The notes beneath the pieces were generated by a model. That model worked only from the letters and a program-made list of their open reading frames with translations, made no database searches and was not told the origin of the DNA. From NCBI GenBank assembly GCA_038851035.1, contig JAWCLH010000003.1, positions 47,511-111,510 of the forward strand: 64,000 bases of DNA, given 5' to 3'. Positions 2,236 to 58,027 of the stretch are shown in pieces. The position numbers and the translations under genes were made by a program. The DNA is from Thermoplasmata archaeon (GTDB lineage Archaea > Thermoplasmatota > DTKX01 > VGTL01). The stretch's first letter is position 1. Every line of letters begins with the position of its first letter.

Positions 2236-3399
2236 ATGAGACGGGTGGCTGTTATTGGGGCTGGAATGACCAGGTTTGTGCGGAGGGCGAAGGAAACTGG
2301 AAAGGAGCTGTCATTTGAGGCGGCGCGGATGGCTCTCGATTCCTGTGGGATGGAGTTCAAAGACATTCAAGCAGTCGCCGAGGGCACCGCCCCAGACGCG
2401 TTTGACGGCGTGCACATGAAGGGGGAGTACCTCTCCAACGGGAGCGGAGGGGTTGGCAGGCCCTACACAAGGTCCTACGTCGGCGGTGGGACAGGGGTCT
2501 TCTGCGGAATTCACGGCTGGTGGCACATTGCCTCGGGCATGTTCGATACCTGCCTTGTGGTGGGTGAAGAGAAGATGTCGTCCTGCCACCCGCACCCCCA
2601 AGGCGCGTTCCTGACCATCTTCGACAGCTTTACAGAAAGGCAACTGGGACCCAACCTGATCTGGATTTTCGCGCTCGAGATGAACAGATACATGACACGG
2701 CACCGCATCAAAAAGGAGGACATTGCGCTCGTGTCGGTGAAGAATCACAGAAATGCTCTCGACCACCCCTCTGCCCAGCTCGGCATGAAAATTACGGTGG
2801 AGGACGTACTTAACTCGGAGGTACTTGCCTACCCAGTCCAGAGGCTGGATATCAGCCCAACCAGCGACGGCGCCGCGGCTCTCGTGCTCGCCTCGGAGGA
2901 AATCGCCCGGAAGTACACCGACACGCCGGTTTTTATTGACGGCGTCGGGTGGTGCTTAGACACCGCATACTGGACCGACAGGGACCTTTACTATCCGCTC
3001 TATGTAGAAATGGCAGCGAGAATGGCATACAAGATGGCTCGTATAGATAATCCGAGGAGGGAGATCGACTTCGCCGAACCCTACGATCCCTTCGATTATA
3101 AGGAACTCCATCACATGGAGGGCCTCATGCTCTGCGGTAAGGGAGAGGCGCCAATATTAACCAGAGAGGGGGTGACTCAGCGCGACGGGGATCTCCCCAC
3201 CTGCCCTTCGGGGGGCGCGCTCGGCGTCGGAAATCCGATCGCGGCGACCGGCGTAATGAAGCTCTGCGAGCTCTTCTGGCAGCTAAGAGGCGAGGCGGGG
3301 AAGAGACAGATAAAAAAGGAGGCTAGAACCGGCGTTGCTCAGGCGTGGGGGGACCTGATGCAGGTGGGCACCGTAGTGGTTATGAGAAGGGGGGATTGA
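2236..3399 (+). CDS. Second thiolase-superfamily protein (SCP-x-type thiolase-like); start trimmed to MRRVAVIGAGMTRF
   Basis: MRRVAVIGAGMTRFV N-terminus typical of SCP-x thiolases; C-terminal GGALGVGNPIAATGV glycine-rich thiolase motif; 4 nt from the upstream stop. Confidence 0.7.
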   Translation: MRRVAVIGAGMTRFVRRAKETGKELSFEAARMALDSCGMEFKDIQAVAEGTAPDAFDGVHMKGEYLSNGSGGVGRPYTRSYVGGGTGVFCGIHGWWHIASGMFDTCLVVGEEKMSSCHPHPQGAFLTIFDSFTERQLGPNLIWIFALEMNRYMTRHRIKKEDIALVSVKNHRNALDHPSAQLGMKITVEDVLNSEVLAYPVQRLDISPTSDGAAALVLASEEIARKYTDTPVFIDGVGWCLDTAYWTDRDLYYPLYVEMAARMAYKMARIDNPRREIDFAEPYDPFDYKELHHMEGLMLCGKGEAPILTREGVTQRDGDLPTCPSGGALGVGNPIAATGVMKLCELFWQLRGEAGKRQIKKEARTGVAQAWGDLMQVGTVVVMRRGD

Positions 3400-6014: not shown

Positions 6015-7460
6015 GTGGGGAAAGCCAGAATAAAAAAGACAAAAATCGTCGCCACTCTGGGCCCCGCGACCGAAGATACTAGCGTTCTTCGGGAAATGAT
6101 ATCTGCTGGCATGGACGTTGCGAGGGTGAACTTCTCCCACGGAAGCCACGAGGAGCATCGGACCCGCATCCGGGCGGTCAGGGAGGCCGCCGAAAAGGAA
6201 GGGAGAATTGTGGCCGTGCTCGGGGACCTCGGGGGGCCGAAAATTCGGATTGGAGAATTCGCCAACGGCAGGGCTGAACTCGTGACCGGGAAGAGATTCA
6301 GACTCACGACACGCGACGTACCCGGGGACGAGACAGAGGTCTCCGTAAACTATCCTCGCCTTCCGGTCGAAGTCAAGGTCGATGAGACCATACTGCTGGC
6401 CGATGGCGCGGTAGAGCTGAGGGTTGTCGACCGAAATTCAACAGATGTCATTTGCGAAGTAGTGAGTGGCGGGGTAATTACATCACGCAAGGGAGTGAAT
6501 CTTCCCTCAAGCCGGTTGAAGACGCCTGCAGTAACCGAGAAGGATAAAGAGGATATCGCTTTTTCTGTTAAAGAGGAGCTGGACTATCTCGCAATCTCTT
6601 TCGTTCGAACGGTGAGGGATGTCAAGGAGGCTAAAGCCGTTCTGGAGACCCATGCCACCCAGATACCCTTGATAGCGAAGATAGAGAAGGCCGAAGCCCT
6701 CTCCGACCTTGAGAACATACTGACCGCTTCCGATGGCGTTATGATAGCCCGGGGGGACCTGGGAGTAGAGATACCTTTTGAGAAGATACCGATTGTGCAG
6801 AAGGAGGTTATGAAAAGAGCTAGGGGAGCGGGGAAACCGGTTATCACCGCTACACAGATGCTGAAATCAATGGTTGAATCCCCTAGACCGACTAGAGCCG
6901 AGACCACGGACGTCGCCAACGCCATTCTGGACGGCACGGACGCTGTGATGCTCTCTGAAGAAACAGCCGTCGGCAGATATCCCGTTGAGGCTGTAAAAAC
7001 CATGGCTTTGATCGCTGTTGAAACTGAAGCCTCGATGGACGAGGATTGGGAGATGAGGCCTGAGCTCTCTGAAGGAAGGAGAGACCTTCAGAACGCGATA
7101 GCAAGGGCCGTTATGGATGCAGCCACACACCCCGAGGCTTCGGTCATTGTCACGCCATCCGCTCGTGGTACGACACCAATGAGGGTTTCGCGCTTGAGGC
7201 CTCGAGTTCCCATTCTGATGCTGACTGAAAATAGGCGCATCGCGAGGAGATTTGCTTTGATTTGGGGTGTTATACCGATATGCGTTAAAATGCCGGGCGA
7301 ACTTAGTGAAGTGTTTAGGTTGGCAGGAGAGGAGGCAAAAATGCGAGGGCTTCTGGCTCCTGGTGAGCTGGCCGTCGTTACCGCAGGCTATCCGATTTTT
7401 GGCACACCAACGAATTTGATTTATATATATAAAAGGCCAAACAGCCCTGAGAAATCATAG
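6015..7460 (+). CDS. pyk: Pyruvate kinase (GTG start, 4 nt after the pfkA stop)
   Basis: KTKIVATLGPAT...ARVNFSHG...GDLGVEIP...MLSEETA, hallmark PK motifs. Confidence 0.9.
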   Translation: MGKARIKKTKIVATLGPATEDTSVLREMISAGMDVARVNFSHGSHEEHRTRIRAVREAAEKEGRIVAVLGDLGGPKIRIGEFANGRAELVTGKRFRLTTRDVPGDETEVSVNYPRLPVEVKVDETILLADGAVELRVVDRNSTDVICEVVSGGVITSRKGVNLPSSRLKTPAVTEKDKEDIAFSVKEELDYLAISFVRTVRDVKEAKAVLETHATQIPLIAKIEKAEALSDLENILTASDGVMIARGDLGVEIPFEKIPIVQKEVMKRARGAGKPVITATQMLKSMVESPRPTRAETTDVANAILDGTDAVMLSEETAVGRYPVEAVKTMALIAVETEASMDEDWEMRPELSEGRRDLQNAIARAVMDAATHPEASVIVTPSARGTTPMRVSRLRPRVPILMLTENRRIARRFALIWGVIPICVKMPGELSEVFRLAGEEAKMRGLLAPGELAVVTAGYPIFGTPTNLIYIYKRPNSPEKS

Positions 7461-7967
7461 CGAAATTCCTAGCGCTCGCCAATTATTTCTTGCTTTGAGG
7501 ATATCTGGATTCAAAAGTCCGTGCTGAATTCTCTGTAACCACGTGAATTCCCATGGAGACCTTGGGAGACTTTTTGCTAACTGTCTGAGTATATTTCTAG
7601 CTAGGTCGATGTTTTCATCATTAAGTTCTGGAATTTCAATGAAAGATAGAGCTCCAGAGGTGGAAGGATGAATGTCATAGAGGTCTATAACAAGCGGAGG
7701 TTGAGCCGTGATAATGAATCTGAAAACATATGCAAATTTTGGAATGGGGACAATAGCATAGAGTTGTGAGTAGGGTTTTTCTGAGCGTTCTCTTCTAAAG
7801 CTAAGACCCATTTCATTAAGAAGCTTTCTTAGGACAGAAGCTGTTGATTGAGCATTAAATGATATCGCGGATGACCAGTGAAGTATTTCACATTTGGATT
7901 TCTTTTTTCTTTTTTTTACCATTGAAGGCTTCTCTATACGTTCTTGCCTATTGATGGTGGATTTCAT
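7455..7967 (-). CDS. Hypothetical protein encoded in the AT-rich island (basic KKRKKKSK N-region)
   Basis: 170-aa ORF with codon usage matching the neighbouring AT-rich cdc6 gene; no family recognised. Confidence 0.35.
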   Translation of the reverse strand: MKSTINRQERIEKPSMVKKRKKKSKCEILHWSSAISFNAQSTASVLRKLLNEMGLSFRRERSEKPYSQLYAIVPIPKFAYVFRFIITAQPPLVIDLYDIHPSTSGALSFIEIPELNDENIDLARNILRQLAKSLPRSPWEFTWLQRIQHGLLNPDILKARNNWRALGISL

Positions 7968-8030
7968 GATTTGAATAATGAGTCGTATTTAAATGAACTT
8001 TTGGGTGGTTCAAAAGAGAAGGGCAGAGGG

Positions 8031-8053
8031 ACCCCTTCATTTCCTGTGGAAAT
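8031..8053 (-). promoter_or_regulatory. ORB-like origin recognition box (dyad TTCCACAGGAAAT + GAA + GGGGT, read on the minus strand)
   Basis: accccttcatttcctgtggaaat; its reverse complement TTCCACAGGAAATGAAGGGGT matches the archaeal ORB architecture (TTCC-N5-GGAA dyad followed by a G-string). It lies 180 nt upstream of cdc6. Confidence 0.45.
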
Positions 8054-8236
8054 CTAAAGAAACTTGATTGATTAGTTTTAAGATAGGAGATTCTAACGAT
8101 TTTGTAAAGAATTGTTATTATCGTCTACATGAAAACAATTTCTTGTTACAAACAGAAAAGTATTTGAAAATGGTATCCATTCCGCTTATCCCACAATAAA
8201 GAAAGGGGAGGAAGAAGGCTAGGAGGAGAAACCCAA

Positions 8237-9517
8237 ATGAGAGATGGAGAGACTGGAAAGGAAAACATAATGGATGACCACGTTACGGTCTTTGATCTCT
8301 ATCTTGATGAGAATATTCGCCCAATATTTAAAAAAGATAGATACGTTCTAAGACCTGAGTACGTACCAAATCGTCTTCCTCATAGAGATAGAGAAATTGA
8401 TCAGCTCGCTTCAATTCTCGTTACAGCTCTTAAAGGTGGCAGACCATCGAACGTTCTTATTTATGGGAAAACTGGCACAGGAAAAACTGCAGTCATAAAA
8501 TTTATTCAAAAAGAGATAGAAAAAAAAGCTTATTCACAGCTCCAGCAAATTCATTGTACTTATATAAATTGTCAGATAGTTGATACGGAATATGGCATTT
8601 TGGCTAATATAGGAAATATGTTTATTAAGGACTGGGATGAGAGAATTCCATTCACAGGATGGCCAACTGAGAAAGTTTATAATCATCTAAGAGAAAAAAT
8701 AGATAATGCCAGAGGCATTATATTAATAGTATTGGATGAAATAGATAAACTTATATTTAAGAGCGGAGATGATGTTTTATATCATCTAACTACTTTAAAT
8801 GAAGATTTAAAAAATTCAAAAATGAGTATTATAGGAATATCTAACGAATCTAAATTCACAGAATTCTTAGACCCTCGGGTCCAAACAAGATTAGGTGAAG
8901 AACGCCTTGTCTTTCCTCCATATAACGCCCATGAACTTTTTGATATACTAAAGCAGAGAGCACAATTAGCATTTGAAGATGGTGCAGTCGATGATTCTGT
9001 TATTTCTCTATGCGCAGCTCTCGCTGCTCAAGAACACGGAGATGCAAGAAGGGCACTTGATTTTCTCAGAGTAGCTGGAGAGCTTGCAGAAAGAGAGAGG
9101 TGTTCTAAAGTTACTGAAAGGCATGTATGGAAGGCAAAAGACAAAATCGAGCTTGATGTACAAATGGAACTCATAAGAACACTTCCAACTCAATCGAAGC
9201 TTCTCCTTTATGGAATAATCCTAAAATCTGAAGAGAGCATAACAATTCAAACAACTGGAGAAGTATACGATATATACAGAGAATTATGTTATAGGGCAAA
9301 TATTCAGCCTGTCAGCCAAAGAAGAATTACGGATCTCATTTCTGAGCTAGATATGCTTGGATTAATTAGCGCTCGAGTTCGTTCCTTCGGCAGGGGAGGA
9401 AGAACAAGAGAGATAACTTTGAGTGTGAATGTTCCAGATACAAAAAGAGTACTATATGAAGACGAAATAATTCGAGAGATAATGGATTTCACTTCTTCAC
9501 AACAGAAAATTATTTAG
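8237..9517 (+). CDS. cdc6: Orc1/Cdc6 replication initiator (AAA+ with C-terminal winged helix)
   Basis: Walker A GKTGTGKT, Walker B ILIVLDEID, sensor motifs, C-terminal wH; strong GGAGG SD 8 nt upstream. The gene is conspicuously AT-rich compared with its flanks. Confidence 0.9.
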   Translation: MRDGETGKENIMDDHVTVFDLYLDENIRPIFKKDRYVLRPEYVPNRLPHRDREIDQLASILVTALKGGRPSNVLIYGKTGTGKTAVIKFIQKEIEKKAYSQLQQIHCTYINCQIVDTEYGILANIGNMFIKDWDERIPFTGWPTEKVYNHLREKIDNARGIILIVLDEIDKLIFKSGDDVLYHLTTLNEDLKNSKMSIIGISNESKFTEFLDPRVQTRLGEERLVFPPYNAHELFDILKQRAQLAFEDGAVDDSVISLCAALAAQEHGDARRALDFLRVAGELAERERCSKVTERHVWKAKDKIELDVQMELIRTLPTQSKLLLYGIILKSEESITIQTTGEVYDIYRELCYRANIQPVSQRRITDLISELDMLGLISARVRSFGRGGRTREITLSVNVPDTKRVLYEDEIIREIMDFTSSQQKII

Positions 9518-10506
9518 TATTTCTTTTTTAGTTTTGCTCGTAGATCTTTTCTTTTTGTTTTTCTTTTTTTCAAAATTGAAATAATAAAATCAATACTGAT
9601 AGGAATAACTACAAGAATAACAATTGTTATAATTAATCCTCTAACACTAGTTTCTGGAAAAGTCTCAGAGCGATGACCCGTGACCCAAAGTTTGAAAAGA
9701 CCGAACCAAGGCAGTTCTCCTTCTGCTCTACCCACAATCCATTCGAGTTTAACAGGAGCTACTAAAGCTCCGTTCACTCTTAAAGATTCTTGGTCAACTT
9801 TTTGAATATTATGGTCTCCCTTTGTAAGAAAACCACTGTCTTGTTTTTGCGAAAAAATAACATTAAACGATATCGTCAAATCCTCTTTTCTATATCCTTG
9901 ATTTTTTATAGTATAAAATTTAACATTATACACATTAATATCTGGTATATCTCCTCTGATATCGTGAGTAGTCATGCATGAAGCGGTTCTATTGTACTCA
10001 ACCCATGCGATCGCGCGATGAATAACTGGAGTATCAGAGAGTCCGTTTTTTTTATATACTATCACATGACCGAAGTCTCCATAAGTCATAACACCATACT
10101 TAGGTGAAGTTCTACATGTGGCTTCTACATAAGTCACAATATCGTGTCGATTATTGATTTTTTTAACAAGAGTGAGATCCCCGGTATCAATAACGCCTAT
10201 TTGACTGTCATTTCCATGCATCATACTGCTGGATTCTATAACTACCATTGGCGGCCACACACCAGAATACATAAATAAAATGCCTAAAACAGAAAAGACT
10301 ATAATCGCAGATACAATGATATCCCTGACTAAACCATAAAAATATTCTTTATAACGAGATTTAGATTTCTTTTCTATCGTTTTATCTTCATTTAAATTAA
10401 ATAATTTTCTACGTCTTTTCTTGACGCTTTTATCATTTAATTTAGGATTAGAGCAGTGTTTAAGAAAATCATTAGATCCCCTCTTCATGCCTGCCCACTC
10501 CGCCAT
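9514..10506 (-). CDS. Signal peptidase I, archaeal/eukaryal Sec11-type (S26), with a large extra domain and a C-terminal TM
   Basis: N-terminal TM followed by VVIESSSMMHG (SGSMEP-like catalytic Ser box) and GVIDTGDLTLVKK (GDL box); 330 aa; AT-rich codon usage like cdc6. Confidence 0.6.
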   Translation of the reverse strand: MAEWAGMKRGSNDFLKHCSNPKLNDKSVKKRRRKLFNLNEDKTIEKKSKSRYKEYFYGLVRDIIVSAIIVFSVLGILFMYSGVWPPMVVIESSSMMHGNDSQIGVIDTGDLTLVKKINNRHDIVTYVEATCRTSPKYGVMTYGDFGHVIVYKKNGLSDTPVIHRAIAWVEYNRTASCMTTHDIRGDIPDINVYNVKFYTIKNQGYRKEDLTISFNVIFSQKQDSGFLTKGDHNIQKVDQESLRVNGALVAPVKLEWIVGRAEGELPWFGLFKLWVTGHRSETFPETSVRGLIITIVILVVIPISIDFIISILKKRKTKRKDLRAKLKKKY

Positions 10507-10633
10507 TCCTTCTGGACTGTTTTTTTCATCATAGACAGAGACGAGTAAGGAGGATGTTCAATATATATATCTTGGCAAAATATCAAATAAAAAAGGAGTT
10601 TTTACCCATAAGTACCTACTTATAATTTTCAAA

Positions 10634-10654
10634 TTCCATAGGAAATAAAGGGGT
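10634..10654 (+). promoter_or_regulatory. ORB-like origin recognition box (TTCCATAGGAAAT + AAA + GGGGT), inverted relative to the ORB at 8031-8053
   Basis: ttccataggaaataaaggggt in the AT-rich spacer that follows an A/T-rich DUE-like stretch at 10560-10620. Confidence 0.45.
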
Positions 10655-10771
10655 AGGAGGACTTAAAAATAGAAAAACTATTTATAATACTTTAGCTAAA
10701 ATAAGCCAAAAACTATTCTTGACCAAAAATATTATTAAGCAATACTACCATCTTGGCTTTGGTGAGAATGG

Positions 10772-11074
10772 ATGGAGCTAGAGATTGACGCTCCCGTCGT
10801 CCTTGACACCCTCCGTAACCTTTATAAAGGGGCTATTCGGGGGTCGAGAGTTCTTGACGACATTATCCGCGCCCATAAGATAACATATGAGGAGGCGGTT
10901 GAAGTTCTTCATTTTCTATTGAAAAACCAATTAATTCTCAACATAGAAAAAAATAGAATCAATGGGGACGCAGTGTACAAACTAACAAGAAGAGGAGAGG
11001 TAGTCATTGAAGAAAGACTTTCTAGCCTCTACCACTCTAACCCCAAGGCCGGGGGTGTGGGGGGAGTGATATGA
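10772..11074 (+). CDS. Small winged-helix DNA-binding protein
   Basis: 100 aa with a wHTH-like core (ITYEEAVEVLHFLLKNQLI...YKLTRRGE); GC-rich codon usage resumes here. Confidence 0.45.
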   Translation: MELEIDAPVVLDTLRNLYKGAIRGSRVLDDIIRAHKITYEEAVEVLHFLLKNQLILNIEKNRINGDAVYKLTRRGEVVIEERLSSLYHSNPKAGGVGGVI

Positions 11075-11538
11075 GCGCTGAAGAGTCAATTTCAAAGAAC
11101 CCCGAGGTTGCGATGGAGCTCCTGACCGAACTATATTATGGCCCCAAGCGCTCATCCAGACTCGTCAAAATGATCATGCAGAGACTTAAGGTCTCTGAGC
11201 CAACAGTGTATGCCACCCTCCAAGAGCTTGTTGCCAAGGGGGCTCTGGAGAAGCAGGAGAGGAGTCGTCGGAGAGTAATATACCGACTTACGGACGAGGG
11301 CCGGCGTTTAATGGATAAGGAGCATTTCGAAGTTATAAACAGTCTTCTCTCCCGCCTCGGTAATCAGGGGCGTCGTAGGGAAATAATGGTAGAGCTCCTT
11401 ATATTAGATTTGCTCGAGGAGCTGCCAGAGGAGATGAGGCGCAGCATCAAGATGGAGGCTCTTCGAAGCAGTACAGCAATTGAATTCGAGGACATGCGCA
11501 AGCGGCTAGTCAGGATGGCGAGTGCCCTCTTTATCTGA
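11071..11538 (+). CDS. PadR-like winged-helix transcriptional regulator
   Basis: PTVYATLQELVAKGALEKQE...RRVIYRLTDEGRRL is the PadR-type recognition helix/wing; overlaps the upstream stop. Confidence 0.5.
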   Translation: MSAEESISKNPEVAMELLTELYYGPKRSSRLVKMIMQRLKVSEPTVYATLQELVAKGALEKQERSRRRVIYRLTDEGRRLMDKEHFEVINSLLSRLGNQGRRREIMVELLILDLLEELPEEMRRSIKMEALRSSTAIEFEDMRKRLVRMASALFI

Positions 11539-11638
11539 GGGCTAGAGGGGTATAGAAGTGACGGAGAAGGAATGGGCGAACCGACCGGATGGCTGGAACG
11601 CAGGCCCAGATGGAATCGATAAAATAGAGGCGTGAGCG

Positions 11639-14600
11639 TTGGCGGAGATAAAAGGCTCCCGGGAGAGTAGCGCGAGAGATGCAATAGTCGAGGAGATGGA
11701 GCGGAGGCTATCGATTGGGAGGCCCACGCGCTTGGGAGAGGTTTCTAGGTCAGTGCTCGAGGCCATCGTCACTGTCTCGATAATCCCCGCCATTGCGATT
11801 ATCTGTGCGAAGTTGCCGATGCTCCAGGATCTCTGGTATGGCCATTTTGAGATATTCAACACGATGCTTCTGGTGCTCCTGCTCGCCGTGGCGGGAGCCG
11901 GTGCGTTTGTATTGCTATCCAACACGAAGCAGCTCTCGAGCAAGTGGTGGACAAGGTCGCTGGCGCTCGCCGCGGGCGGGGGATTGATAATCGGTCTCTC
12001 CCTACTACCTTCCGCCGGGTTCACCTATTTAAATGCTGTGCCATGGTGGGCACCGGCGATCCTGCTCATCGGCGCGGCCGTGGTCTGGGTGGCGAACTCT
12101 CTCATCAAAGAGAGGCTGGGCTTCTACAGCATCTGGTTCACGGGCCTTATTTTCCTGACCATAGTACCTCTTGAGGAGGCCCTCCTCAAGGGAGTCAGCG
12201 GAACCTACAGGTATGGCTCTTACGAGGGCGCTAGAATGAATATCATATTGGTGGGGCTGATATTTCTCTTCTTCGGGGTGCTTCTGTACGTTCGCGAGCG
12301 AAGGATGATCAAGAGGATAGATACCGAGCTAGCAAGAGGAGACGAGCTTGCCAAAGCGGGGAGGTATGACGAGGCCCTAAAGAGCTACGACAGGGCGATT
12401 CGGGCAGCCCACCTCCTCGCTCCGCCCTCCCATGTCGGGGAGGGCAAGAAAGCGCCCGTCGATGGCTACGAGACCCCCTGGCACGCCAAGGGGTTCGCAT
12501 TCATGAAGATGGGCCGCTACAGCGAAGCTGTCCCCTATCTCGACCTCGCGCTCGACGCCAACCCCGAGAACGAGGCGGTATGGATAAACCGTGGGAACGC
12601 CCTCTCCCGCCTTAAGCAGTTCGATAGCGCGATTCAAAGCTACACCGTGGCCCTGAAGCTCAACCCGAAGAGCGAGGCTGCATACAACAATCTAGGCTGG
12701 GCGCTCTATGCAAAGGATGATGTGGAGGGAGCTATCCGATGCTACGATGCCGCCATCGCCCTGAAGCCAGACTACTCGCAGGCGCTCTACAACAAGGGTT
12801 TGGCTCTCCTCAGGGCAAACAGGCTCGATGAGGCCGTATCAACTCTTGACAAGGCTCTCGCGGTCAAGGAGGCCCCGCTCAGCCCAGCCCAGCAGCTCGC
12901 TGCTAAACACGCCAAGGGCAACGCCCTCTACAGAATGCAGAAGCTGCCCGAGGCTGTCCAGGTCTTCGATGAGGTGCTGAGCCAGGTCCCGGACGTGTCC
13001 GTTTTTCTTCTCAAGGGCAACGCCCTGATGCTCCAGAGGAAATATTCCGAGGCCCTCACCCAGTACGAGAACGCCCTCCGCTATGACCCACGGAACGGCA
13101 GCGCCTGGAACAACCGTGGTAACGCCCTGTTGAACATGGACAAAAAGGAGGAGGCGATATACTGCTTCGACCAGGCAATAAAATTCGACCCCCAGAACGC
13201 AGAGCCTTGGAATAATAAGGGCATCGCGCTGAGCCGGCTGAACCGTCTTCCGGAAGCGCTGAAGTGCTTTGAAAAGGCTCTGGAACTCGACCCCCGGCAC
13301 CTTGATGCGATGTTGAACAAGGGCAATACCCTCTCGAAGCTTGGAAAGCACACCGAGGCCATAAAGTGCTTCGACCAGCTCCTCGCCCACGACCCAAACA
13401 ACGTGATAGCCCTGAATAACAAAGCCAACGCCTTGGCGCGCATGGGCAAGACTGAAGAGGCCCTCCAGGCTTACGACAGGGCGACAGCGCTCGCGCCGAA
13501 CTTCGAGCTCGCGCAGGTGAACAAGGGGAACACATTGATGGCCGTCGAGCGCTATGAGGAGGCCAAGAGGTGCTTCGAAAAGGCCCTGGAACTAAATCCG
13601 AAGAACGCCCACGCATGGTTCAGTCGTGGGAGCATACTGCAGAAGCTCAAAGCGTCTCCAGAAGAGGCTCTGAAAAACATAGACGCAGCCCTATCCCTCG
13701 ACCCGAAACATGTAGAAGCTTGGAACACCAGGGGCGATATACTACTTGAGGCGAAGAGGTTCGATGAGGCGATTCAGTGCTACGATACCGTCCTGAAGCT
13801 CCAGCCGGACAACGTCTCGGCCTGGTACCACAGGGGCAGTGCCCTCTCGCAGAAGGGGAACCACGCAGAGGCCATAGCCGCCCTTGACAAAGCCACCGAT
13901 CTGGACGAGGACTACATCGATGCCTGGAACCTAAAGGGGCATATCTGGCACACGCTGGGCGAGATGGAGAAGGCAATATTCAACTTCGACAAGGTTACCG
14001 AGCTAGACCCGGGACACGTCGAGGCCTGGGACAACAAGGGCGTTGCGTACTACTCAATGGGCAGAATTCACGACGCTATCAAGTGCTTCGAGAAGTGTGT
14101 GGCCATAGATCCCAGGTACGAGAAGGGCTGGTACAATATGGCTTCGGCCTACAGCTCGCAGGGCAAAGTCGAGGAGGCCCTGAAGTGCTATGAAAAGGCG
14201 ATTGAAATCAAGCCGGACTATGGGAAAGCCTGGAACAACATGGGCAACCTTCTTTATTCTATAGACAGGCTTGACGAGGCCCTCCGGTGCTTCGATCGCG
14301 CTCTCACCATCGACTCAACCTACGAGAAGGCCTGGAATAACAAAGGCAACATCCTGCTCACAAAAGGGCAGACGGAGGAGGCTCTGGCCTGCTTCAACCG
14401 CGCCCTAGAGCTCGACCCGAAGTACGTGAAGGCGTGGAACAACAAGGGGAGCGCCCTATTCAATTTGGGGAGAGTAGAGGAGTCGTTGGAGTGCTTTAGA
14501 GAGGCCTTGAAGCTGAAAAAGGACTACGACAAGGCTTGGTACAACGCCGGCGCGGCGCTGCACAAGATGGGCAAGTCGGAGGAGGCCATAGCCTGCTTCG

Positions 14601-17443
14601 ACAAGGCGATAGAGCTGAGGCCGAAGTACGACGAGGCATGGTACAACAAAGGCGCCGCCCTCTTCAAGCTCGGCCGGGTGAAGGAGGCGGTAGAGTGCTT
14701 TGAAGAAACGCTCAAGCTCAACCCTAGATTTGACGAGGCCTGGTACAATCTAGGCAATGCGAAGTACTATCTGGGCAGCACCCTGGAGGCCCTGAAGGCG
14801 CTCGACCGGGCGCTCGAGATAAACCCCGAGTATCAGGAAGCCATCCGAATTCGGACCGAGTGCCTCGAGACTTTGGAGAAGGCAGGAAGGATGTACGAGT
14901 ACTGGAGGGAGAAGGGCAACATTCTCGCGGAGGCGGGAAAGGACACGGAGGCCCTCACCTGTTACAACAAGGCTCTGGACCTAAAGAAGGACGACGACAG
15001 GACCTGGTTCTTCAAGGGGAAGCTGCAGGCTAAAATGGGGAGGCACGAGCAGGCCGTGCAGTCATTTGACAAGGTGCTGGCGATAAAACCTGACGACAGA
15101 GAGGCCTGGTACGGGAAGGCGGAGTCTCTGGTGGCCTCGGGAAGGGTGGCGGAGGCGATCATTTGCTACGACAAAGTGATCGAGCTCGACCCCCAGAACG
15201 AGCAGGCCTGGCTGAACAAAGGAATGGCGCTCATCAAGCTGGGCCGAATAGAAGACGGGATGCAGTGCTTCCAAAAGATGATCGAGCTCACGCCCGAGGA
15301 CCACCTGGGCTGGCACTACATGGGCCTCGGCCTTGCTGCGACGGGCAGAAAGGCAGACGCAGTCACCTACTTTTCCAGAGCGCTAGATCTGAACCCCAGC
15401 GCGCTCGACACGTGGTTCCAGAAGGGCCTAGCGCTCCGGGACCTAGGAAAAACTGACGAAGCGATCGCGGCTCTGAACAAGGTCGTTGAGCTGAAGCCTG
15501 AGCATTCCGAGGGCTGGACCGCTCTCGGCGAGCTGTTGATGAAAGCGGAGAAGTGGGAGGGTGCGAGCAAAGCCTTCGAGAAGGCGATCACTGCAAACGA
15601 GATGAACCCGCGGGCCTGGTTCGGAAAGGGAATGGTCCAGCTCAATCACGGCAACGCGCAGGCCGCTAGTGAGGCTCTTCAGAGGGCGCTAGAGCTGAAG
15701 CCGGACTTCGGCGAGGCCTGGAGCGGCATGGGGATGGCATACCTAAAGAGCGGGAACGCGGGGTCGGCGCTGGAGTGCTTCGAGAAGGCGGTGAAGCTTG
15801 CGCCGGGCTACGCGGAGGGCTGGTCCGGCTACGGCAGCGCGCTCTTTGCGCTAGGCCGCCTGGACGAGGCTATCAAGGCCTTTGACACCGCCATATCCAT
15901 CAACCCGAACTTCGAGAAGGCCTGGGCCAACAAGGCGACGGCATTGGTCAAAGCCGGCAAGGCTCCGATGGCTTTAATAGCACTTGACAAGGCGACTGAG
16001 ATAAAGCCGGATTATGAGAAGGCCTGGGCGGACAAGGGCAATGTGCTCCTTTCTCTGGGAAGAACGGAGGACGCCTTGGCGGCCTTCAACCGGGCGCTGA
16101 CGCTCAACCCCCGCAGCGACAAGACCTGGCTAGCGGTCGGTCAGGCCCTCCAGACTATGGGCAAGCACAAGGAGGCGGTGGCGGCCCTCGATAAGGCTAT
16201 AGGAATCAAGCCGGAGAGCGAACGAGCGTGGCTCGAGAAGGGGAACGCCCTCCAGGCGATGGGGAACCACGACGCTGCCATTCAGGCCTACAATCGAGCG
16301 CTGGAGCTGAAGCCTGACAACGCAAAGGCTTGGCTGGGGCGGGGCCTTGCCTACGCCGACCTTACGGAGTACGGGGACGCGCTCAAGAGCCTCGAGAAGG
16401 CCCTCGAGCTGAAGCCTGAGGACGACAGGGTCTGGATGGAGAGAGGAAAAGTTCTGATGGCGATGGAGCGGTATGATGAGGCCGCGACGAGCCTTGCGAA
16501 GGCAATAGAGCTGAACAGAGCAAACGCTCAGGCCTGGTTCCTGAGCGCAACGCTGCTGGCGAAGCAGGGAATGGCCGAGGATGCGATCGCCGCGCTCAAT
16601 CAGGCGCTCGAGGCTGACCCCGCCCATGCCGATGCGCTCCTGGAAAAGGCGAAGCTCGCGATGCAGCTCCGTAGGGGAGACGAGGCTCTGAAGGCCCTGT
16701 ACAGGTTCGTGGAGGTGAGGAAGGAGAGCGCCGAGGGCTGGCTTCTTCTGGGCGCAGCGCTCTACGAGAATGGGCAGAGGGAGGAGGCGCTGGGGGCGCT
16801 GGACAGGGTGGTCCAACTAGACACAAGCCATGCCCGCGCTTGGGCGCTACGTGGCAAGATACTACAGGAACTCGAGAGGAGCGAAGAGGCCCTGAAGTCC
16901 TTCGAGAGGGCTGCGGAGCTCGAGCCAGACATGGAGGAGGCATGGCTCGGCATGGCCGACATACAAACTCGGGCTGGAAAGGCTGAGGAGGCGGTCCGGA
17001 CGCTGAAGAAGGCGCTGGACAGGAACCCGAAGAGCGAAAGGGCATGGCTGGCGACCGCGGTGGCACTGAGGAAGCTGGGTCGTGTGAAGGACGCGATGAA
17101 GTGCGTAGAGCGGGTTCTCAAAATAAATCCGCGCAACGAGAGGGCTATAGAAATGAGGGAGCTGCTCGAGAGCGAGGAGGAGGAGGCTGGCGGGGCGGGG
17201 CCCGAGGCAGCTCCCACGGTGCCCGAGCCTGCGCCCACTACAAGCAAGGAGGGCCGCGAGAGGAGCGGCCCCGCGGCCCCAGAGCCATCAGGGCCTGTGG
17301 CTGCGGGGGAGGCCCAAAGGCGTGAGGGAACAGGAGCCTCGTCGCCATCGGCTGGACCTGGAGCCGTTCAGGCCGCCCCCGGCCCGCGCGGGGCCGATGT
17401 GAGAGACGATTTCGAGAGCATCGAGACTGTGGAGATGGAGTGA
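11639..17443 (+). CDS. Giant membrane-anchored TPR protein (N-terminal ~6 TM helices, ~45 TPR units, Glu/Pro/Ala-rich low-complexity C-tail), 1934 aa
   Basis: N-terminal hydrophobic helices (IIPAIAIICAKL, LLVLLLAVAGAGAFVLL, LIIGLSLLP, ILLIGAAVVWV, IFLTIVPL, IILVGLIFLFFGVLLYV). These are followed by an uninterrupted series of 34-aa W-x2-G-x2-L / A-x3-Y / A-x6-P TPR repeats. Confidence 0.85.
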   Translation: MAEIKGSRESSARDAIVEEMERRLSIGRPTRLGEVSRSVLEAIVTVSIIPAIAIICAKLPMLQDLWYGHFEIFNTMLLVLLLAVAGAGAFVLLSNTKQLSSKWWTRSLALAAGGGLIIGLSLLPSAGFTYLNAVPWWAPAILLIGAAVVWVANSLIKERLGFYSIWFTGLIFLTIVPLEEALLKGVSGTYRYGSYEGARMNIILVGLIFLFFGVLLYVRERRMIKRIDTELARGDELAKAGRYDEALKSYDRAIRAAHLLAPPSHVGEGKKAPVDGYETPWHAKGFAFMKMGRYSEAVPYLDLALDANPENEAVWINRGNALSRLKQFDSAIQSYTVALKLNPKSEAAYNNLGWALYAKDDVEGAIRCYDAAIALKPDYSQALYNKGLALLRANRLDEAVSTLDKALAVKEAPLSPAQQLAAKHAKGNALYRMQKLPEAVQVFDEVLSQVPDVSVFLLKGNALMLQRKYSEALTQYENALRYDPRNGSAWNNRGNALLNMDKKEEAIYCFDQAIKFDPQNAEPWNNKGIALSRLNRLPEALKCFEKALELDPRHLDAMLNKGNTLSKLGKHTEAIKCFDQLLAHDPNNVIALNNKANALARMGKTEEALQAYDRATALAPNFELAQVNKGNTLMAVERYEEAKRCFEKALELNPKNAHAWFSRGSILQKLKASPEEALKNIDAALSLDPKHVEAWNTRGDILLEAKRFDEAIQCYDTVLKLQPDNVSAWYHRGSALSQKGNHAEAIAALDKATDLDEDYIDAWNLKGHIWHTLGEMEKAIFNFDKVTELDPGHVEAWDNKGVAYYSMGRIHDAIKCFEKCVAIDPRYEKGWYNMASAYSSQGKVEEALKCYEKAIEIKPDYGKAWNNMGNLLYSIDRLDEALRCFDRALTIDSTYEKAWNNKGNILLTKGQTEEALACFNRALELDPKYVKAWNNKGSALFNLGRVEESLECFREALKLKKDYDKAWYNAGAALHKMGKSEEAIACFDKAIELRPKYDEAWYNKGAALFKLGRVKEAVECFEETLKLNPRFDEAWYNLGNAKYYLGSTLEALKALDRALEINPEYQEAIRIRTECLETLEKAGRMYEYWREKGNILAEAGKDTEALTCYNKALDLKKDDDRTWFFKGKLQAKMGRHEQAVQSFDKVLAIKPDDREAWYGKAESLVASGRVAEAIICYDKVIELDPQNEQAWLNKGMALIKLGRIEDGMQCFQKMIELTPEDHLGWHYMGLGLAATGRKADAVTYFSRALDLNPSALDTWFQKGLALRDLGKTDEAIAALNKVVELKPEHSEGWTALGELLMKAEKWEGASKAFEKAITANEMNPRAWFGKGMVQLNHGNAQAASEALQRALELKPDFGEAWSGMGMAYLKSGNAGSALECFEKAVKLAPGYAEGWSGYGSALFALGRLDEAIKAFDTAISINPNFEKAWANKATALVKAGKAPMALIALDKATEIKPDYEKAWADKGNVLLSLGRTEDALAAFNRALTLNPRSDKTWLAVGQALQTMGKHKEAVAALDKAIGIKPESERAWLEKGNALQAMGNHDAAIQAYNRALELKPDNAKAWLGRGLAYADLTEYGDALKSLEKALELKPEDDRVWMERGKVLMAMERYDEAATSLAKAIELNRANAQAWFLSATLLAKQGMAEDAIAALNQALEADPAHADALLEKAKLAMQLRRGDEALKALYRFVEVRKESAEGWLLLGAALYENGQREEALGALDRVVQLDTSHARAWALRGKILQELERSEEALKSFERAAELEPDMEEAWLGMADIQTRAGKAEEAVRTLKKALDRNPKSERAWLATAVALRKLGRVKDAMKCVERVLKINPRNERAIEMRELLESEEEEAGGAGPEAAPTVPEPAPTTSKEGRERSGPAAPEPSGPVAAGEAQRREGTGASSPSAGPGAVQAAPGPRGADVRDDFESIETVEME

Positions 17444-17570
17444 GGATGTGCGCTGAAAGACCGGATGTGGGCGAAGAGGGGGAAGCCGGAGGCCCCCGGG
17501 GAACCGAAGGCTTTAAAGCCCACACAGCGGTAATGGCGAATTCCCCACTAGGAACAATGGGGGAGCGCAG

Positions 17571-20500
17571 GTGAGAGGGAGACTAGTAAGGTGGTGGACA
17601 CTCGGGCTCATGCCAGTTCTGCAGGCCCAGCCCCCGGACTTTGATGGAGAGGAGCCGCCGCCCCAGAGAAGGGAGCAACCTCCTCCGGAGGGACATGACG
17701 ATTTCGAGGAGGTGCCGCCCCCTCCCCCCGGCGGGCCGGCTGAGAAGGCAACCTCTCCCCCATCTGGACCGGTACCGGCGCCCGCGGGGCCTGCAGAATT
17801 CGAGGAGGCTCCACCGCCGGCCCCCGGCCAGTCCGGAGCCCCAGCCCCGGAGAGTCCTGAAGAGTTACCGCCCTCTCCTCCTCCGCCCCAGCCGGCCGCG
17901 CCCGGGGAACCTGTGGAGTTCGAGGAAGCGCCTTCACGTCCCCCAGCGCCCGAAGCGTCCATGGAGTTCACGGAGGCTCCGGGTCCCGGTCCCTCGAGAG
18001 AAGCTCCACCACCCGAGGAGTTCGAGGAGGCCCCGGCCCCCGGACCTCCCGAGCAACCCGCAGTCCCTCCGCCGGAAGCTCCCTCCCCGGCAGTCACCCC
18101 CAGGGGCCCCGAGGAGGCTCTACCGGGCGAGCCGGAGGTATTCGAAGTGAAGGCCGAGGAGGCGCCGCCGGTTTCGCTCAGGACCGCCCCGCCGGCCGAG
18201 GCCGAGGCCCCCGAGACCAGACCGGCCGCCCGGAGGAGGGCGGGCATGGTCAATGGCCGGGGGCTCGTCAACGCCCGCGGGAGGGCCAACGGCCTCGTCA
18301 ATGGTCGGGGGCTGGTCAACGCGAGGGGCAGGACAAACGGCCTTGTCAATGGCCGTGGATTGGTCAATGCGCGCGGAGCGACGAACGGCCTCGTCAACGG
18401 CCGCAGGAGGGGGCTGGTCAACGGCGCGAGCCTCGTCAACGGCCGGAGGCGGAGGGGTCTGGTAAACGGTGGCGGCCTGATAAACGGTGAGGGTGTTATC
18501 AACGGCCGGGGGCTGGTCAACGGCAAGGGCCTGATAAACGGCCGCGGTCTGACCAACGGAAGGCAGCTCGTTGCGGCGGAGACCGTGCCCAGCCGCCCCA
18601 GGCCGCGGAAGAGGCTGATGATGGCCGCTCTCGCGGTCGCCATCGCCCTCCTGATAATCATCCCGATATTTTATATAGTGCAGGTGGAGAAGGGCATAGC
18701 GATAGACGGCATCTTCGCCGACTGGAGCGGCGTGAGCAACAAGTACAACGACGGCGGCGCCTCGCCCGTGCCATCGACGGACAACAATGTCGACATCGAC
18801 ATGTTCGGAGCGAGCGCGAGCGATACCGACCTATCCTTCTATCTGAAGGTCGCGGGACAGGTGCTGAAGGGCGCGGGCAACGGGGTTGATACACTTACTA
18901 TTTTCATAGACAAAGACCACGACGGTAACGGCTATCTGGTCAATAGCCCCGGAGGGGTCATCCACGCTGACCTGAAGCTCGAGGTCTTCGGCTGGGACGG
19001 ACTCGTCAAGTCCGCCTCATATTCGAAATTCGAGGGAGCCAACCCGAACGACTACTCCGGCTGGAAGAGCCTCGGGGCGGCGAGGGCAGCGGTCTCCGGG
19101 AGCGAGCTCGAGGCGCAGGTCTGGTTCAGGGATACGGGTATGTCCCGGAACTCCGAGGTCAGCATCCTGTTCTACCTGCGCGACTCGAACGGCGAGGAGG
19201 ACTACTCCGACTTTACGATAGGAATGAGCACCGGCGTCCTTAGCGTCAGGCAGAGGGAGCCGAGCCTTGGGGGTGGAGGAGGGAGCCTTGTTCTCGACCT
19301 GACCGCGCACGCCCGTACAATCAATGTGACATCGATAACGGTCACGCGTTTCGGGAGCGGGGGAGGGGGGATGCTCCAGCTCAGCGGGCCCGGAGGGCTT
19401 GAGAGGACGGCCTCATTCGCGGGCACGGGGAGCCTGACAGGCTTCGTCCTGACGGTCGAGAGAGACCGGACGGTCTCGGTCACGCTCTACGCGAGCGGTA
19501 TGAGCGGCGTATTTGGAATGGGCCTGGCATCGCCCACGGCGGTCACGGCCAGCACGAACGGCCGCACCGTCCACGTGTCGGTCTCGGGCTACTCAACGGC
19601 GCTCGTCAATCTCGCCGGTGGTGTGCCCGGAGGAATTATCATAGACGGGGCCTTCGAGGACTGGGACGCCACCCGCGGGAGCGCCGGGTACCGCTCCCGG
19701 CTGGACAGGAGCGACGATGTACAGCAGTCCGGGAGGGTCGGGACGCCGGGGCTCATTGACAGGGGCGGGCTGGCCTATTACCCAAACGACAACATCAACC
19801 TGCAGGAGGTGGCCGAGTACGACTCCGGAGGCGGGCCCCTCTATTTCTATGCCAGAGTCGCCGGGAAGGCGATGGCGGGCCAGCCGGTTCCGGCGACGAG
19901 GCGCGGGACGCCGGGGCCCTCCGGACCTCCATCTCCACCGAAGGAGCTGAAGCTCGTGGGCTCGGACGCTTTTTACGTTCTGATAGATGACGATGGCAAC
20001 AAAAACACCGGCTACCCGCTCTACACGGAGGACGGGGACCTCCTGATCGGAGCGAGGTACTGCGCCGTGGCGATAGGGAAGAACGGAGTGGTGCTAGAGG
20101 TCAGGACCTTCGTGTACGACGGCGGCTGGCGCGAGGGGGGCTTCTCAGCCACCGCGGCCTCGGGGGGGAAGAGGATAGAGCTCTCCGCGTCGGGCATCGC
20201 GGCCCTCGTGGCCCACAGGACCATCATAATAGCGGAGGACTGGACCTGCAACGCCGACCGGAGCGACGCGCCGCTCGTCGGCGCCGGGAGGAGCGGGGGA
20301 GAGCCGACGCTCATAGTCAACGAGGTGGATATTGCGAAGCACGTGATAAGAATCGGCTCCTCGAACAACCCGCTCTTCAGAATCGAGCTGGAGGCGCTCA
20401 ACGGAGAGGTCGAGGTCAGCGGAATCGAGCTCCAGAGGGACGGAACCGCCCCGGATGAGGATATCTGCCTCGTTCGCCTGATGCAGGACGCCGACGGCGA

Positions 20501-21314
20501 CTGGGAGCTGACGGTGGGAGACCGGGAGCTCGCGGCGACGGTATTTGTCAATGGAAGCGCTAACTTCACCCTCGCGCCGCCCGTCGTCGTCAGGCCGGGG
20601 GAGATTGTGGTCCTAATCGTGGCGATTGACGTTAGGGAGGGGGCGGGGGAGTATGGTAGATTTGGGGCGGGGATAAAGAGGGTGGAGAGCAGCGGAGTCG
20701 AAGTGGATACTATTATCGAGAGCGAGACGAGAGATGTCGTATTTGTCAAAACGAATGGAAGATGGCAATCACTGACAGCATGTGTAATTAATGAGATAAA
20801 AAAGAAAAGTAGTGGTTACGAAGTTGAATGGATTGAAATTCTTAATAAATCAGGAAATAAGATTTCAGATTGGAAAATTTCAGAATCTCTCGGATCATGG
20901 AGCATATCTATTACTTTAGAAAATGGAGAATGTAAATATTATGCAATCGGCGAAGATATTGTATATTGGAAAAAAGATTCTACTTACAATACAATTTATT
21001 TGTATGATAATAATAATAATTTGAAAGATTCAAAAACTCTTTCTGAATTAACAGAAGGTGCCTATTCAATGGCTCGTTATAGAGATGCAGATGAAAATCC
21101 CACGGATGAATGGTATGATGAGAATGAGCCTACACCTGGAAATAAAAATGATTTAATCCCCGAGTTCCAAGATATTATCTATCCACTCGCCGGCCTTATT
21201 GCTGTAATCGTCGTAATCCGCGCCGCAGGCCGGGGGCGCACCGGGGGTATGAGGCGCATGAAGAGTGGAGCGGAGAAGACGATCCGCGCGCGGAGGCGGA
21301 CCAGCGAGCTCTAA
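17571..21314 (+). CDS. Large surface protein: Pro/Glu-rich N-region with EFEEAP repeats, (G)LVNGRG tandem repeats, single TM, extracellular DG-F-DW domains, C-terminal lamin-tail-like module and hydrophobic/Arg-rich anchor (PGF-CTERM-like)
   Basis: Repeats NGLVNGRGLVNARG at 18243-18570; TM LMMAALAVAIALLIIIPIFYI; motif IIIDGAFEDWD appears twice; C-terminal PLAGLIAVIVVIRAAGRGR. It is paralogous to the gene at 35041-37512. Confidence 0.8.
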   Translation: MRGRLVRWWTLGLMPVLQAQPPDFDGEEPPPQRREQPPPEGHDDFEEVPPPPPGGPAEKATSPPSGPVPAPAGPAEFEEAPPPAPGQSGAPAPESPEELPPSPPPPQPAAPGEPVEFEEAPSRPPAPEASMEFTEAPGPGPSREAPPPEEFEEAPAPGPPEQPAVPPPEAPSPAVTPRGPEEALPGEPEVFEVKAEEAPPVSLRTAPPAEAEAPETRPAARRRAGMVNGRGLVNARGRANGLVNGRGLVNARGRTNGLVNGRGLVNARGATNGLVNGRRRGLVNGASLVNGRRRRGLVNGGGLINGEGVINGRGLVNGKGLINGRGLTNGRQLVAAETVPSRPRPRKRLMMAALAVAIALLIIIPIFYIVQVEKGIAIDGIFADWSGVSNKYNDGGASPVPSTDNNVDIDMFGASASDTDLSFYLKVAGQVLKGAGNGVDTLTIFIDKDHDGNGYLVNSPGGVIHADLKLEVFGWDGLVKSASYSKFEGANPNDYSGWKSLGAARAAVSGSELEAQVWFRDTGMSRNSEVSILFYLRDSNGEEDYSDFTIGMSTGVLSVRQREPSLGGGGGSLVLDLTAHARTINVTSITVTRFGSGGGGMLQLSGPGGLERTASFAGTGSLTGFVLTVERDRTVSVTLYASGMSGVFGMGLASPTAVTASTNGRTVHVSVSGYSTALVNLAGGVPGGIIIDGAFEDWDATRGSAGYRSRLDRSDDVQQSGRVGTPGLIDRGGLAYYPNDNINLQEVAEYDSGGGPLYFYARVAGKAMAGQPVPATRRGTPGPSGPPSPPKELKLVGSDAFYVLIDDDGNKNTGYPLYTEDGDLLIGARYCAVAIGKNGVVLEVRTFVYDGGWREGGFSATAASGGKRIELSASGIAALVAHRTIIIAEDWTCNADRSDAPLVGAGRSGGEPTLIVNEVDIAKHVIRIGSSNNPLFRIELEALNGEVEVSGIELQRDGTAPDEDICLVRLMQDADGDWELTVGDRELAATVFVNGSANFTLAPPVVVRPGEIVVLIVAIDVREGAGEYGRFGAGIKRVESSGVEVDTIIESETRDVVFVKTNGRWQSLTACVINEIKKKSSGYEVEWIEILNKSGNKISDWKISESLGSWSISITLENGECKYYAIGEDIVYWKKDSTYNTIYLYDNNNNLKDSKTLSELTEGAYSMARYRDADENPTDEWYDENEPTPGNKNDLIPEFQDIIYPLAGLIAVIVVIRAAGRGRTGGMRRMKSGAEKTIRARRRTSEL
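18243..18570 (+). repeat. Coding tandem repeat (18-nt unit, ggcctcgtcaacggccg-like) encoding (G)LVNGRG/LVNARG units
   Basis: About 18 consecutive imperfect copies of ctcgtcaacggccgnggg visible directly in the sequence. Confidence 0.8.
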
Positions 21315-21371
21315 ACCTATCATCCTTTCCCGTTTTCATAGTGGCGCCTCTTCAGCGCCTCCATAAGTGCC

Positions 21372-21755: not shown

Positions 21756-21968
21756 CGCCCAGACCCGGACTATCTAGATGCTTAGGGGTAAATGAAGTTA
21801 TCTGGGAACAGCCCGGAGCGTCTGGAGGCAAGTCGCTGGAGTAGGAAGCAAGGAGGCAACGGTCTCTATCCATCCGGAATAATCGAAAAGGGGGATGAGT
21901 TGGGAGAAGTTTCGGAGTTCGCCGGAGGCGGTCGATGGAGCCTCCGGCAGCGGTGGCAAAATGGAAAA

Positions 21969-57947: not shown

Positions 57948-58027
57948 TTTTCACCCCCTTTTACCGATAGTGAATGAAGGTCCAGAAGGGGATAAGCTTT
58001 CTCTTCCGGGGACTGGGGAGCTGTCGG

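Follow-up and report, generated by a model that had tools for sequence, protein, structure and literature searches.

A probable oriC1-type replication origin in a locally AT-rich domain of a Thermoplasmata chromosome

We analyzed a 64,000-nt stretch of DNA, here called the window, from a Thermoplasmata archaeon (assembly GCA_038851035.1, contig JAWCLH010000003.1, positions 47,511 to 111,510 of the forward strand). An island of low G+C content (GC) in this window carries the gene for the replication initiator Orc1/Cdc6, a convergent gene for a signal peptidase (sigpep) and two origin recognition boxes (ORBs) that bracket the gene pair in inverted orientation. The sequence of the locus and its conservation among relatives suggest, with a probability that we put at roughly 0.7, that it is an oriC1-type origin locus, native to a Thermoplasmata chromosome and vertically inherited, whose AT-richness is kept up locally. 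The initial annotation of this DNA had read the island as an origin, and the initiator, the inverted ORBs, the AT-rich tracts and their conservation support that reading as far as sequence can. The principal elements are these.

8031-8051, minus strand: left ORB TTCCACAGGAAATGAAGGGGT, consisting of the dyad TTCCACAGGAA and the G-string GGGGT, pointing away from cdc6
8052-8188: AT-rich tract from the left ORB to the cdc6 promoter region, GC 0.27, a candidate unwinding element
8237-9517, plus strand: orc1/cdc6, replication initiator of the slow-evolving "cdc6.1"/oriC1 type
9514-10506, minus strand: sigpep, predicted Sec11-type signal peptidase I, convergent with cdc6 and overlapping it by 4 nt
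10540-10633: AT-rich tract with a TATATATA block on the inner side of the right ORB, GC 0.28, a second candidate unwinding element and/or the sigpep promoter
10634-10654, plus strand: right ORB TTCCATAGGAAATAAAGGGGT, inverted relative to the left ORB, with its G-string directed away from the cdc6-sigpep pair

Both ORB-like boxes had been predicted beforehand, and their positions proved exact, at 21 nt each. They are the sole matches to the ORB pattern in 64 kb with up to 3 mismatches allowed, and none appeared in 100 shuffled sequences. They lie on opposite strands 2.6 kb apart, with 0 such sites expected by chance. The ORB consensus of the Methanomassiliicoccales is GTTCCAGTGGAAATGG-AGGGGTA and the general archaeal consensus is CTTCCAGTGGAAACGAAAGGGGT; individual sites listed with them include GTTCCAGTGGAAATGA-AGGGGT and GTTCCAGTGGAAATAA-AGGGGT (Borrel et al., PMC4153887, Table 2). 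The left ORB matches the first of these sites, ORB3 of 'Ca. M. intestinalis', and the right ORB matches the second, ORB2 of M. luminyensis; each is identical to its counterpart save for two central dyad bases. The canonical dyad TTCCAGTGGAA has GT at its centre, whereas the dyad of the window, TTCCAyAGGAA, has CA or TA, a variant common to the whole clade and to outgroup L031.

The conservation of the ORBs was examined in a comparison set of 29 loci. The relatives fall into group A (the window with L028, and L004 with L018), group B (L005, L011, L013, L015, L016 and L017), group C (L008, L014 and L022) and L020, which stands alone; the outgroups sampled all have 44-51% GC. The left ORB is present in 15 loci; in the 11 for which its distance upstream of cdc6 was measured, this distance is 189-279 nt and the box is on the minus strand. 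The right ORB is present on the plus strand beyond sigpep in 12 loci, drawn from groups A, B and C and L020. In all related lineages whose contig covers the spacer in question (about 12), the ORB has kept its position and orientation, in spacer sequence that is otherwise poorly conserved. A repeat search of the island found no further ORB copies, only low-complexity T-rich and A-rich repeats. One degenerate element (TCCCACAATAAAGAAAGGGGA, 8189-8209, plus strand) is inverted relative to the left ORB and departs from the ORB pattern at 4 positions. No more of it than a short block with TCC (the yTCC core) is conserved in the alignment, and it is a weak candidate for a second box in the cdc6 upstream spacer. 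In group B relatives a clearer second box of the ORB type, TTCCACGAGAAGGGG, lies some 45 nt away from the left ORB. Outgroup L031, with a Cdc6 that is 64% identical, has four boxes of the same ORB variant around cdc6 and a gene for an HflX-like GTPase upstream.

In several high-GC relatives the right ORB is directly followed by GGGT-rich short tandem repeats, such as CAGGGTT in five copies, GGGTGGAA in six copies, and GGGTACCGGGTTCC. These repeats were seen at 6816-6900 of L005, 3358-3440 of L015 and 3377-3470 of L017, and just past the right ORB in L022 and L027. They might lengthen the G-string or form G-quadruplexes, and they are absent from the window and L004, which have AT-rich sequence there instead. 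In L004, the spacer that separates the right ORB from the peptidase gene contains a masked run of N (3250-3350) followed by two copies of a repeat of about 40 nt, GAGCATTTGCTCGATTGTTTGGTGTTGC.

The Orc1/Cdc6 encoded between the ORBs is a chromosomal-type initiator. It scored 562.7 bits against the NF001625 equivalog model (cutoff 501) and 440 bits against TIGR02928, and it matched the Pfam domains AAA, Cdc6_lid and Cdc6_C, with the lid and winged-helix regions present. All of its best matches are Thermoplasmatota Orc1 proteins. Identity is 80-89% to clade relatives, which come from uncultured Thermoplasmatota sampled in lake, wetland and sediment metagenomes, and 60-68% to other Thermoplasmata and Methanomassiliicoccales Orc1 proteins. 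No further cdc6 copy was found within the 64-kb window. The cdc6.1 type has been described as slow-evolving, conserved in context and vertically inherited (PMC4153887).

Gene order at the locus is equally stable. According to the tblastn table, orf170(-), cdc6(+), sigpep(-), orf100, the PadR-family regulator gene and the TPR-protein gene follow one another in the same order and orientation in all 29 loci, and the pyruvate kinase (pyk) and phosphofructokinase (pfk) genes lie upstream of orf170 wherever the contig extends that far. Identity matrices of Cdc6, sigpep, orf170, PadR, TPR and pyk recovered the same groups, with congruent trees for all six genes, and both the island genes Cdc6 and sigpep and the flank genes place group A as a monophyletic unit. 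A convergent Sec11-like gene also follows cdc6 in the complete genomes of the distant outgroups L030, L032 and L033. The haloarchaeal oriC1 context has been reviewed as a gene for a GTP-binding protein (gbp), cdc6, a signal sequence peptidase gene and polA, with inverted ORBs (PMC4010727). As judged from these gene arrangements, the cdc6/Sec11 pairing is older than the clade and marks a conserved oriC1 neighbourhood.

AT-rich tracts resembling DNA unwinding elements (DUEs) had been noted near both boxes, and the measured GC agrees, at 0.27 in 8052-8188, 0.28 in 10540-10633 and 0.28 again in 10655-10771. In high-GC relatives the 60-mers of lowest GC are situated on the immediate inner side of each ORB: one of them lies at the matching place, -108 to -186 from the cdc6 start, and others occur 75-140 nt upstream of the right ORB. 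The TATATA block on the inner side of the right ORB is conserved.

The locus resembles the oriC1-type origins that have been characterised in Pyrococcus, as Sulfolobus oriC1 and as haloarchaeal oriC1, and predicted in Methanomassiliicoccales (PMC4153887, PMC4010727). In common with these it has an initiator gene beside the origin, inverted ORBs of the dyad plus GGGGT form and adjoining AT-rich tracts. It shares the signal-peptidase neighbour with haloarchaeal oriC1 and ORBs on either side of cdc6.1 with 'Ca. M. alvus', in which pairs of ORBs lie upstream and downstream of orc1/cdc6.1 (PMC4153887). It differs in having one full ORB per spacer, in the 2.6-kb distance across two genes that separates the pair, and in the strong AT shift of the genes themselves. 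If the locus works as an origin, Orc1/Cdc6 would be expected to bind both inverted ORBs bracketing the convergent cdc6/Sec11-peptidase pair, and DNA opening and MCM loading could occur in the AT tract on the inner side of each ORB.

The second distinctive feature of the locus is its composition. Measured in 300-nt windows, GC stays at 0.53-0.62 as far as about 7,350, falls to 0.28-0.42 across 7,351-10,950 and is at least 0.50 again beyond about 10,950. Windows of 100 nt resolve a sharp left edge at 7,400-7,460, which coincides with the pyk stop. The initial annotation had placed a drop from above 60% at this stop; the drop is real and the starting value slightly overstated, with GC of 0.54 in pyk and 0.56 in pfk. 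Its recovery point at 10,772 holds only approximately. The right edge is gradual and extends over some 0.3-0.8 kb; orf100 (10,772-11,074) is still mixed at 0.32-0.52, and GC of at least 0.55 is regained at about 11,050-11,600. The island genes also have the AT-rich codon usage, unlike the rest of the window, that had been described. The GC of third codon positions (GC3) is 0.32 in orf170, 0.25 in cdc6 and 0.26 in sigpep, and 40 other ORFs of the window have a mean of 0.70 (standard deviation 0.077, minimum 0.47), so that the island genes stand at z = -5.0 to -5.9 and are atypical in composition. The island spacers have GC of 0.30-0.35, compared with mostly 0.53-0.65 for spacers elsewhere in the window; the effect is therefore regional and goes beyond codon choice alone.

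An assembly chimera was considered as a source of the island and rejected, because two other independent assemblies (L001 and L029) carry the identical island and junctions at 99.96-99.98% identity. The three near-identical assemblies differ at 6 positions in total, 4 of them within the island, which is too few for a mutational spectrum. The window and L029 have 5 differences over 12.9 kb, and three of these (8246, 8300 and 8313) fall in the first 80 nt of cdc6. The island makes up 26% of the compared length and has four of the six strain differences, numbers too small to interpret.

Both cdc6 and sigpep have lower GC3 than their flanks in every member of the clade, by widely differing amounts, as the following values illustrate.

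Window: cdc6 GC3 0.24, sigpep 0.26, flank 0.57-0.77
L004: cdc6 GC3 0.32, sigpep 0.36, flank 0.65-0.81
L028: cdc6 GC3 0.50, sigpep 0.46, flank 0.76-0.87
L008: cdc6 GC3 0.61, sigpep 0.71, flank 0.77
L005: cdc6 GC3 0.83, sigpep 0.77, flank 0.92-0.96
L011: cdc6 GC3 0.85, sigpep 0.84, flank 0.91-0.94

At the 287 cdc6 codons with an invariant amino acid, GC3 ranges from 0.25 in the window to 0.86 in L011, and GC at the four-fold sites of invariant residues ranges from 0.17 in the window to 0.89. The interval between the ORBs has lower GC than both flanks in 9 of the 9 loci that have both boxes. The low-GC domain roughly equals this interval in L004 and L028 and extends over orf170 in the window genome. 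Large GC3 deficits are restricted to group A, and the four outgroups examined (44-51% GC) have no GC dip. The shift reaches the proteins as well: FYMINK residues make up 0.35 of sigpep in the window and 0.25 in L008, and GARP residues 0.19 and 0.28, respectively.

The four-fold sites of the window are 33% identical to those of L004, where 29% is expected for independent draws (saturated), and 31% identical to those of L028, where 24% is expected (nearly saturated). The window, L004 and L028 each retain an AT-rich island next to a GC-rich TPR gene. Synonymous sites have been saturated while the island was retained, which points to a local substitution bias that upholds the contrast. We also considered whether the island merely lags behind a genome-wide rise in GC, and rejected this as a full explanation. 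Its GC3 of 0.25 is far below the 0.53-0.73 of the moderate-GC outgroups, which means that the island moved towards AT and was not simply left behind. Together, these sequence comparisons suggest that the AT-richness appears to be a local substitution bias kept up in place, not a foreign mark. The low GC would then represent a local compositional domain centred between the ORBs, which all members of this high-GC clade have in weaker form and which turned extreme, with a GC3 deficit of about 0.3-0.5, in the sub-lineage that includes the window genome. Synonymous sites have turned over fully since the split of this sub-lineage, and an ongoing local bias would have to keep the island AT-rich. Such a bias could stem from recurrent exposure of single strands, from a lack of GC-biased gene conversion in the island or from selection for easy melting.

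A more specific proposal, which we regard as speculative and somewhat doubtful, is that origin function itself has created an AT-rich micro-domain between the ORBs that maintains itself. It would arise from recurrent single-stranded exposure in the zone of MCM loading and unwinding, or, in a polyploid archaeon of high GC, from GC-biased gene conversion that leaves out the origin. Such a process would shift codon choice and amino-acid composition in two essential genes, orc1/cdc6 and sigpep, by up to 50 GC3 points, and its strength would have changed several-fold between sister lineages. Our literature search returned no description of an origin-centred compositional domain in Archaea, a silence that is a weak sign of novelty. 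Prokaryotic chromosomes are regionally structured in composition, as in the A+T enrichment near bacterial replication termini. The domain described here is like that enrichment in that its GC3 shift is tied to a replication landmark, affects essential genes and is maintained in place. Unlike it, the domain spans only about 3 kb, lies at an origin, reaches a GC3 deficit of up to about 0.5 and varies in strength more than 5-fold among close relatives.

Several observations weigh against a native, working origin in this form. Each of the two spacers has a single full ORB, beside which lies a tract with GC of 0.27-0.28, whereas characterised origins usually have at least two ORBs flanking the DUE in one spacer. 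At oriC3-cdc6D* of Haloarcula hispanica, a similar locus with one ORB-like element in each intergenic region flanking cdc6D, the origin was judged deficient and had no autonomously replicating sequence (ARS) activity (PMC3528665). Archaea do not always depend on an origin: replication of Thermococcus kodakarensis is reported to proceed without its Cdc6 and origin (PMC5663688). The 64-kb window has no GC-skew extremum at the island, skew being often weak in archaea and uninformative over such a length; cumulative skew climbs through the island and peaks near 47 kb, and a local change of sign at about 9.5 kb tracks the convergent gene ends. Repeated allele replacement from unsampled AT-rich relatives would, strictly, still be able to produce the AT bias. 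All but the last of these points would fit an alternative in which the ORBs are operator or regulatory sites of Orc1 or remnants of a dormant origin, with initiation elsewhere or dependent on recombination, and the boxes do lie near the probable promoters of cdc6, sigpep and orf100. We nevertheless consider this alternative unlikely. The cdc6D of H. hispanica is a strain-specific accessory gene, whereas the initiator of the window is a conserved oriC1-type orthologue in a conserved neighbourhood and not an accessory paralogue. Both ORBs, their inversion and the AT tracts have been retained across deep divergence in every lineage covered, and group B relatives have the second ORB-like box beside the left ORB.

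The other alternatives concern the source of the AT-rich sequence. The initial annotation had suggested lateral acquisition of the initiator-origin cassette, or that it belongs to an integrated replicon. Spelled out, orf170, cdc6 and sigpep would have arrived together or as part of a plasmid or virus that integrated, and their AT-richness would be the unameliorated composition of a donor. The strong contrast (GC3 z of -5 to -6) and the sharp boundary at the pyk stop speak for this, as does the frequent presence of orc1/cdc6 on archaeal mobile elements (PMC3528665). Integrated elements and laterally acquired archaeal origins such as the haloarchaeal oriCa and oriCb families, which are accompanied by transposases (PMC3528665), are likewise linked to cdc6 and atypical in composition. 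Unlike those elements, the locus of the window lacks mobility genes, variable context and phylogenetic incongruence. It occupies the syntenic site in all relatives, with gene order and orientation the same between pyk and orf100-PadR-TPR; the trees of the island genes match those of the flanks, and the cdc6-Sec11 pairing predates the clade. Pfam and NCBIfam scans found no integrase or transposase domain in the region, a repeat search found no border or att-like repeats at the island, and no tRNA gene lies near it, the nearest being at 52-58 kb. A scan of viral contigs with Cdc6 gave no relative; the protein is a chromosomal equivalog, and its PHROG matches are to generic AAA+ proteins only and reach at most 76 bits, where the chromosomal model gives 563 bits. 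A donor signature should moreover have decayed, given that synonymous sites are saturated between lineages that retain the island. Lateral acquisition thus finds no support, and we regard it as highly improbable. Replacement of the native cdc6-sigpep alleles by an orthologous segment from an AT-rich member of the family would preserve synteny and would account for a sharp left boundary at a gene end. The Cdc6 of the window is 82-86% identical to those of groups B and C and, at nearly the same level, 82% identical to that of L004, whereas TPR shows a clear contrast, at 83% versus about 69%. The Cdc6 tree thus has poorer resolution than the trees of the flanks. Against replacement, the roughly 12 lineages compared include no AT-rich member of the family, and all of their flanks have GC3 of at least 0.53. 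Group A is monophyletic for Cdc6 and sigpep just as for the flank genes, and the right boundary is graded. The deficit is found in 4 of 4 group A members and, at smaller size, in every other clade member, which fits a graded local process better than a series of imports. Allele replacement therefore seems an improbable source, though less so than a mobile element, and a native origin locus with a locally maintained AT-rich domain remains our preferred reading.

As an origin the locus is of a well-known kind, and its compositional behaviour is the only unusual aspect. The analysis locates a probable chromosomal origin for an uncultured freshwater and sediment clade of Thermoplasmata and defines the ORB variant of that clade. 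It also indicates that a GC drop with deviant codon usage, a pattern usually taken for horizontal transfer, can be native to an origin and maintained there, and methods that predict islands should allow for this. Should origin function be the cause of the bias, the mutation and gene-conversion regimes at archaeal origins could be studied from metagenomes alone. A micro-domain of the kind proposed would, if real, be an origin-centred compositional domain in Archaea and would allow active origins of uncultured lineages to be marked from sequence alone.

The remaining features of the locus are as follows.

7455-7967, minus strand: orf170, a clade-restricted conserved protein in the left part of the island, GC3 0.32
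8154-8166, plus strand: AGAAAAGTATTTG, the most conserved non-coding block of the cdc6 upstream spacer
10691-10739, plus strand: TTTAGC..AGCCAAAAaCTAT..GACCAAAA..TTAT, a block of about 45 nt upstream of orf100, conserved in 10 loci
10772-11538, plus strand: orf100 and a PadR-family regulator, conserved neighbours on the graded right shoulder, with GC3 of 0.47 and then 0.60

The three gene calls made earlier for the island (a 170-aa ORF, orc1/cdc6 and a Sec11-type signal peptidase) were right, and the peptidase is a divergent one. It fell below the family threshold of TIGR02228 (22.7 bits, cutoff 51.85), and neither the query nor five orthologues matched a Pfam peptidase family at E <= 1. A profile of the five orthologues matched human SEC11A and SEC11C in a PDB search (E = 1.2e-5), with the Ser, His and Asp boxes in the same order. 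The invariant boxes of these orthologues are VIESSSM (Ser), GD, PVIHRA (His) and GFxTxGDxN..DQ (Asp). The protein has one N-terminal and one C-terminal membrane segment and an insertion of about 60 aa. Because of the profile match and the catalytic boxes, and with Pfam silent, the product is predicted to be a divergent signal peptidase of the Sec11 type (archaeal/ER-type).

The peptidase ORF is longer in some relatives, with 620-670 aa in L005 (4895-6757, minus strand) and L020 (11671-13683, minus strand), compared with about 330 aa in the window. These ORFs have an acidic, low-complexity N-terminal extension that includes a KDQEESS repeat; either the start is mis-assigned or the extension is real. 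In L020, and also in L021, a spacer of about 440 nt (11,234-11,670 of L020) separates the convergent cdc6 and peptidase genes, which elsewhere overlap or nearly touch. Over some 100 nt of the L020 spacer GC is only about 0.10, and this stretch holds the most AT-rich 60-mer of that locus.

The 170-aa ORF, transcribed divergently from cdc6, is a real gene, as it has 11 homologues with 56 invariant columns and a reasonable AlphaFold2 model (mean predicted local distance difference test score 74.5). All 11 homologues belong to this clade, and one of them, an NCBI hypothetical protein from a 'Thermoplasmata archaeon' metagenome-assembled genome, is 100% identical. The protein had no match in Pfam, NCBIfam or PHROG, and Foldseek comparison of the model with the PDB gave nothing at E <= 0.001, with TM scores of at most 0.40. 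On the other side of the island, the PadR-family regulator matched PF03551 at 2.7e-8.

Among the non-coding blocks, AGAAAAGTATTTG is nearly invariant in 15 loci, in a spacer that has otherwise diverged, and it is probably the promoter of cdc6, with a TFB recognition element (BRE) and TATA box. The form AGAAAAGTAT(T/A)TG, shared by the window (8154-8166) and 14 related loci, is more strictly conserved in the cdc6 upstream spacer than the ORB itself, and could alternatively be another protein-binding site. The block at 10691-10739 is a probable promoter or operator for the orf100-PadR operon. An Rfam scan of 7,000-11,600 found no RNA family at E <= 0.1.

Elsewhere in the window, 57,500-62,500 has a second, weaker low-GC patch (GC 0.47-0.52, GC3 0.41-0.54; at about 59-62.5 kb) that serves as a contrast case. 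It lies directly after the genes for tRNA-Gly (57536-57610, minus strand) and tRNA-Pro (57875-57947, plus strand), and contains an ORF for an ATPase resembling AAA_25/DnaB_C (58995-60098, minus strand) and several orphan ORFs (60575-61702). Pfam found no integrase in it; the patch looks like a real integrated mobile element. Straight downstream of the origin region, 11,639-26,348 holds three very large ORFs, which encode a 1,934-aa TPR-repeat protein kept in all relatives, a 1,247-aa product and a 1,518-aa surface protein with FG-GAP, Big_9 and cadherin-like features. GC rises to 0.70-0.75 around 17.4-18.5 kb.

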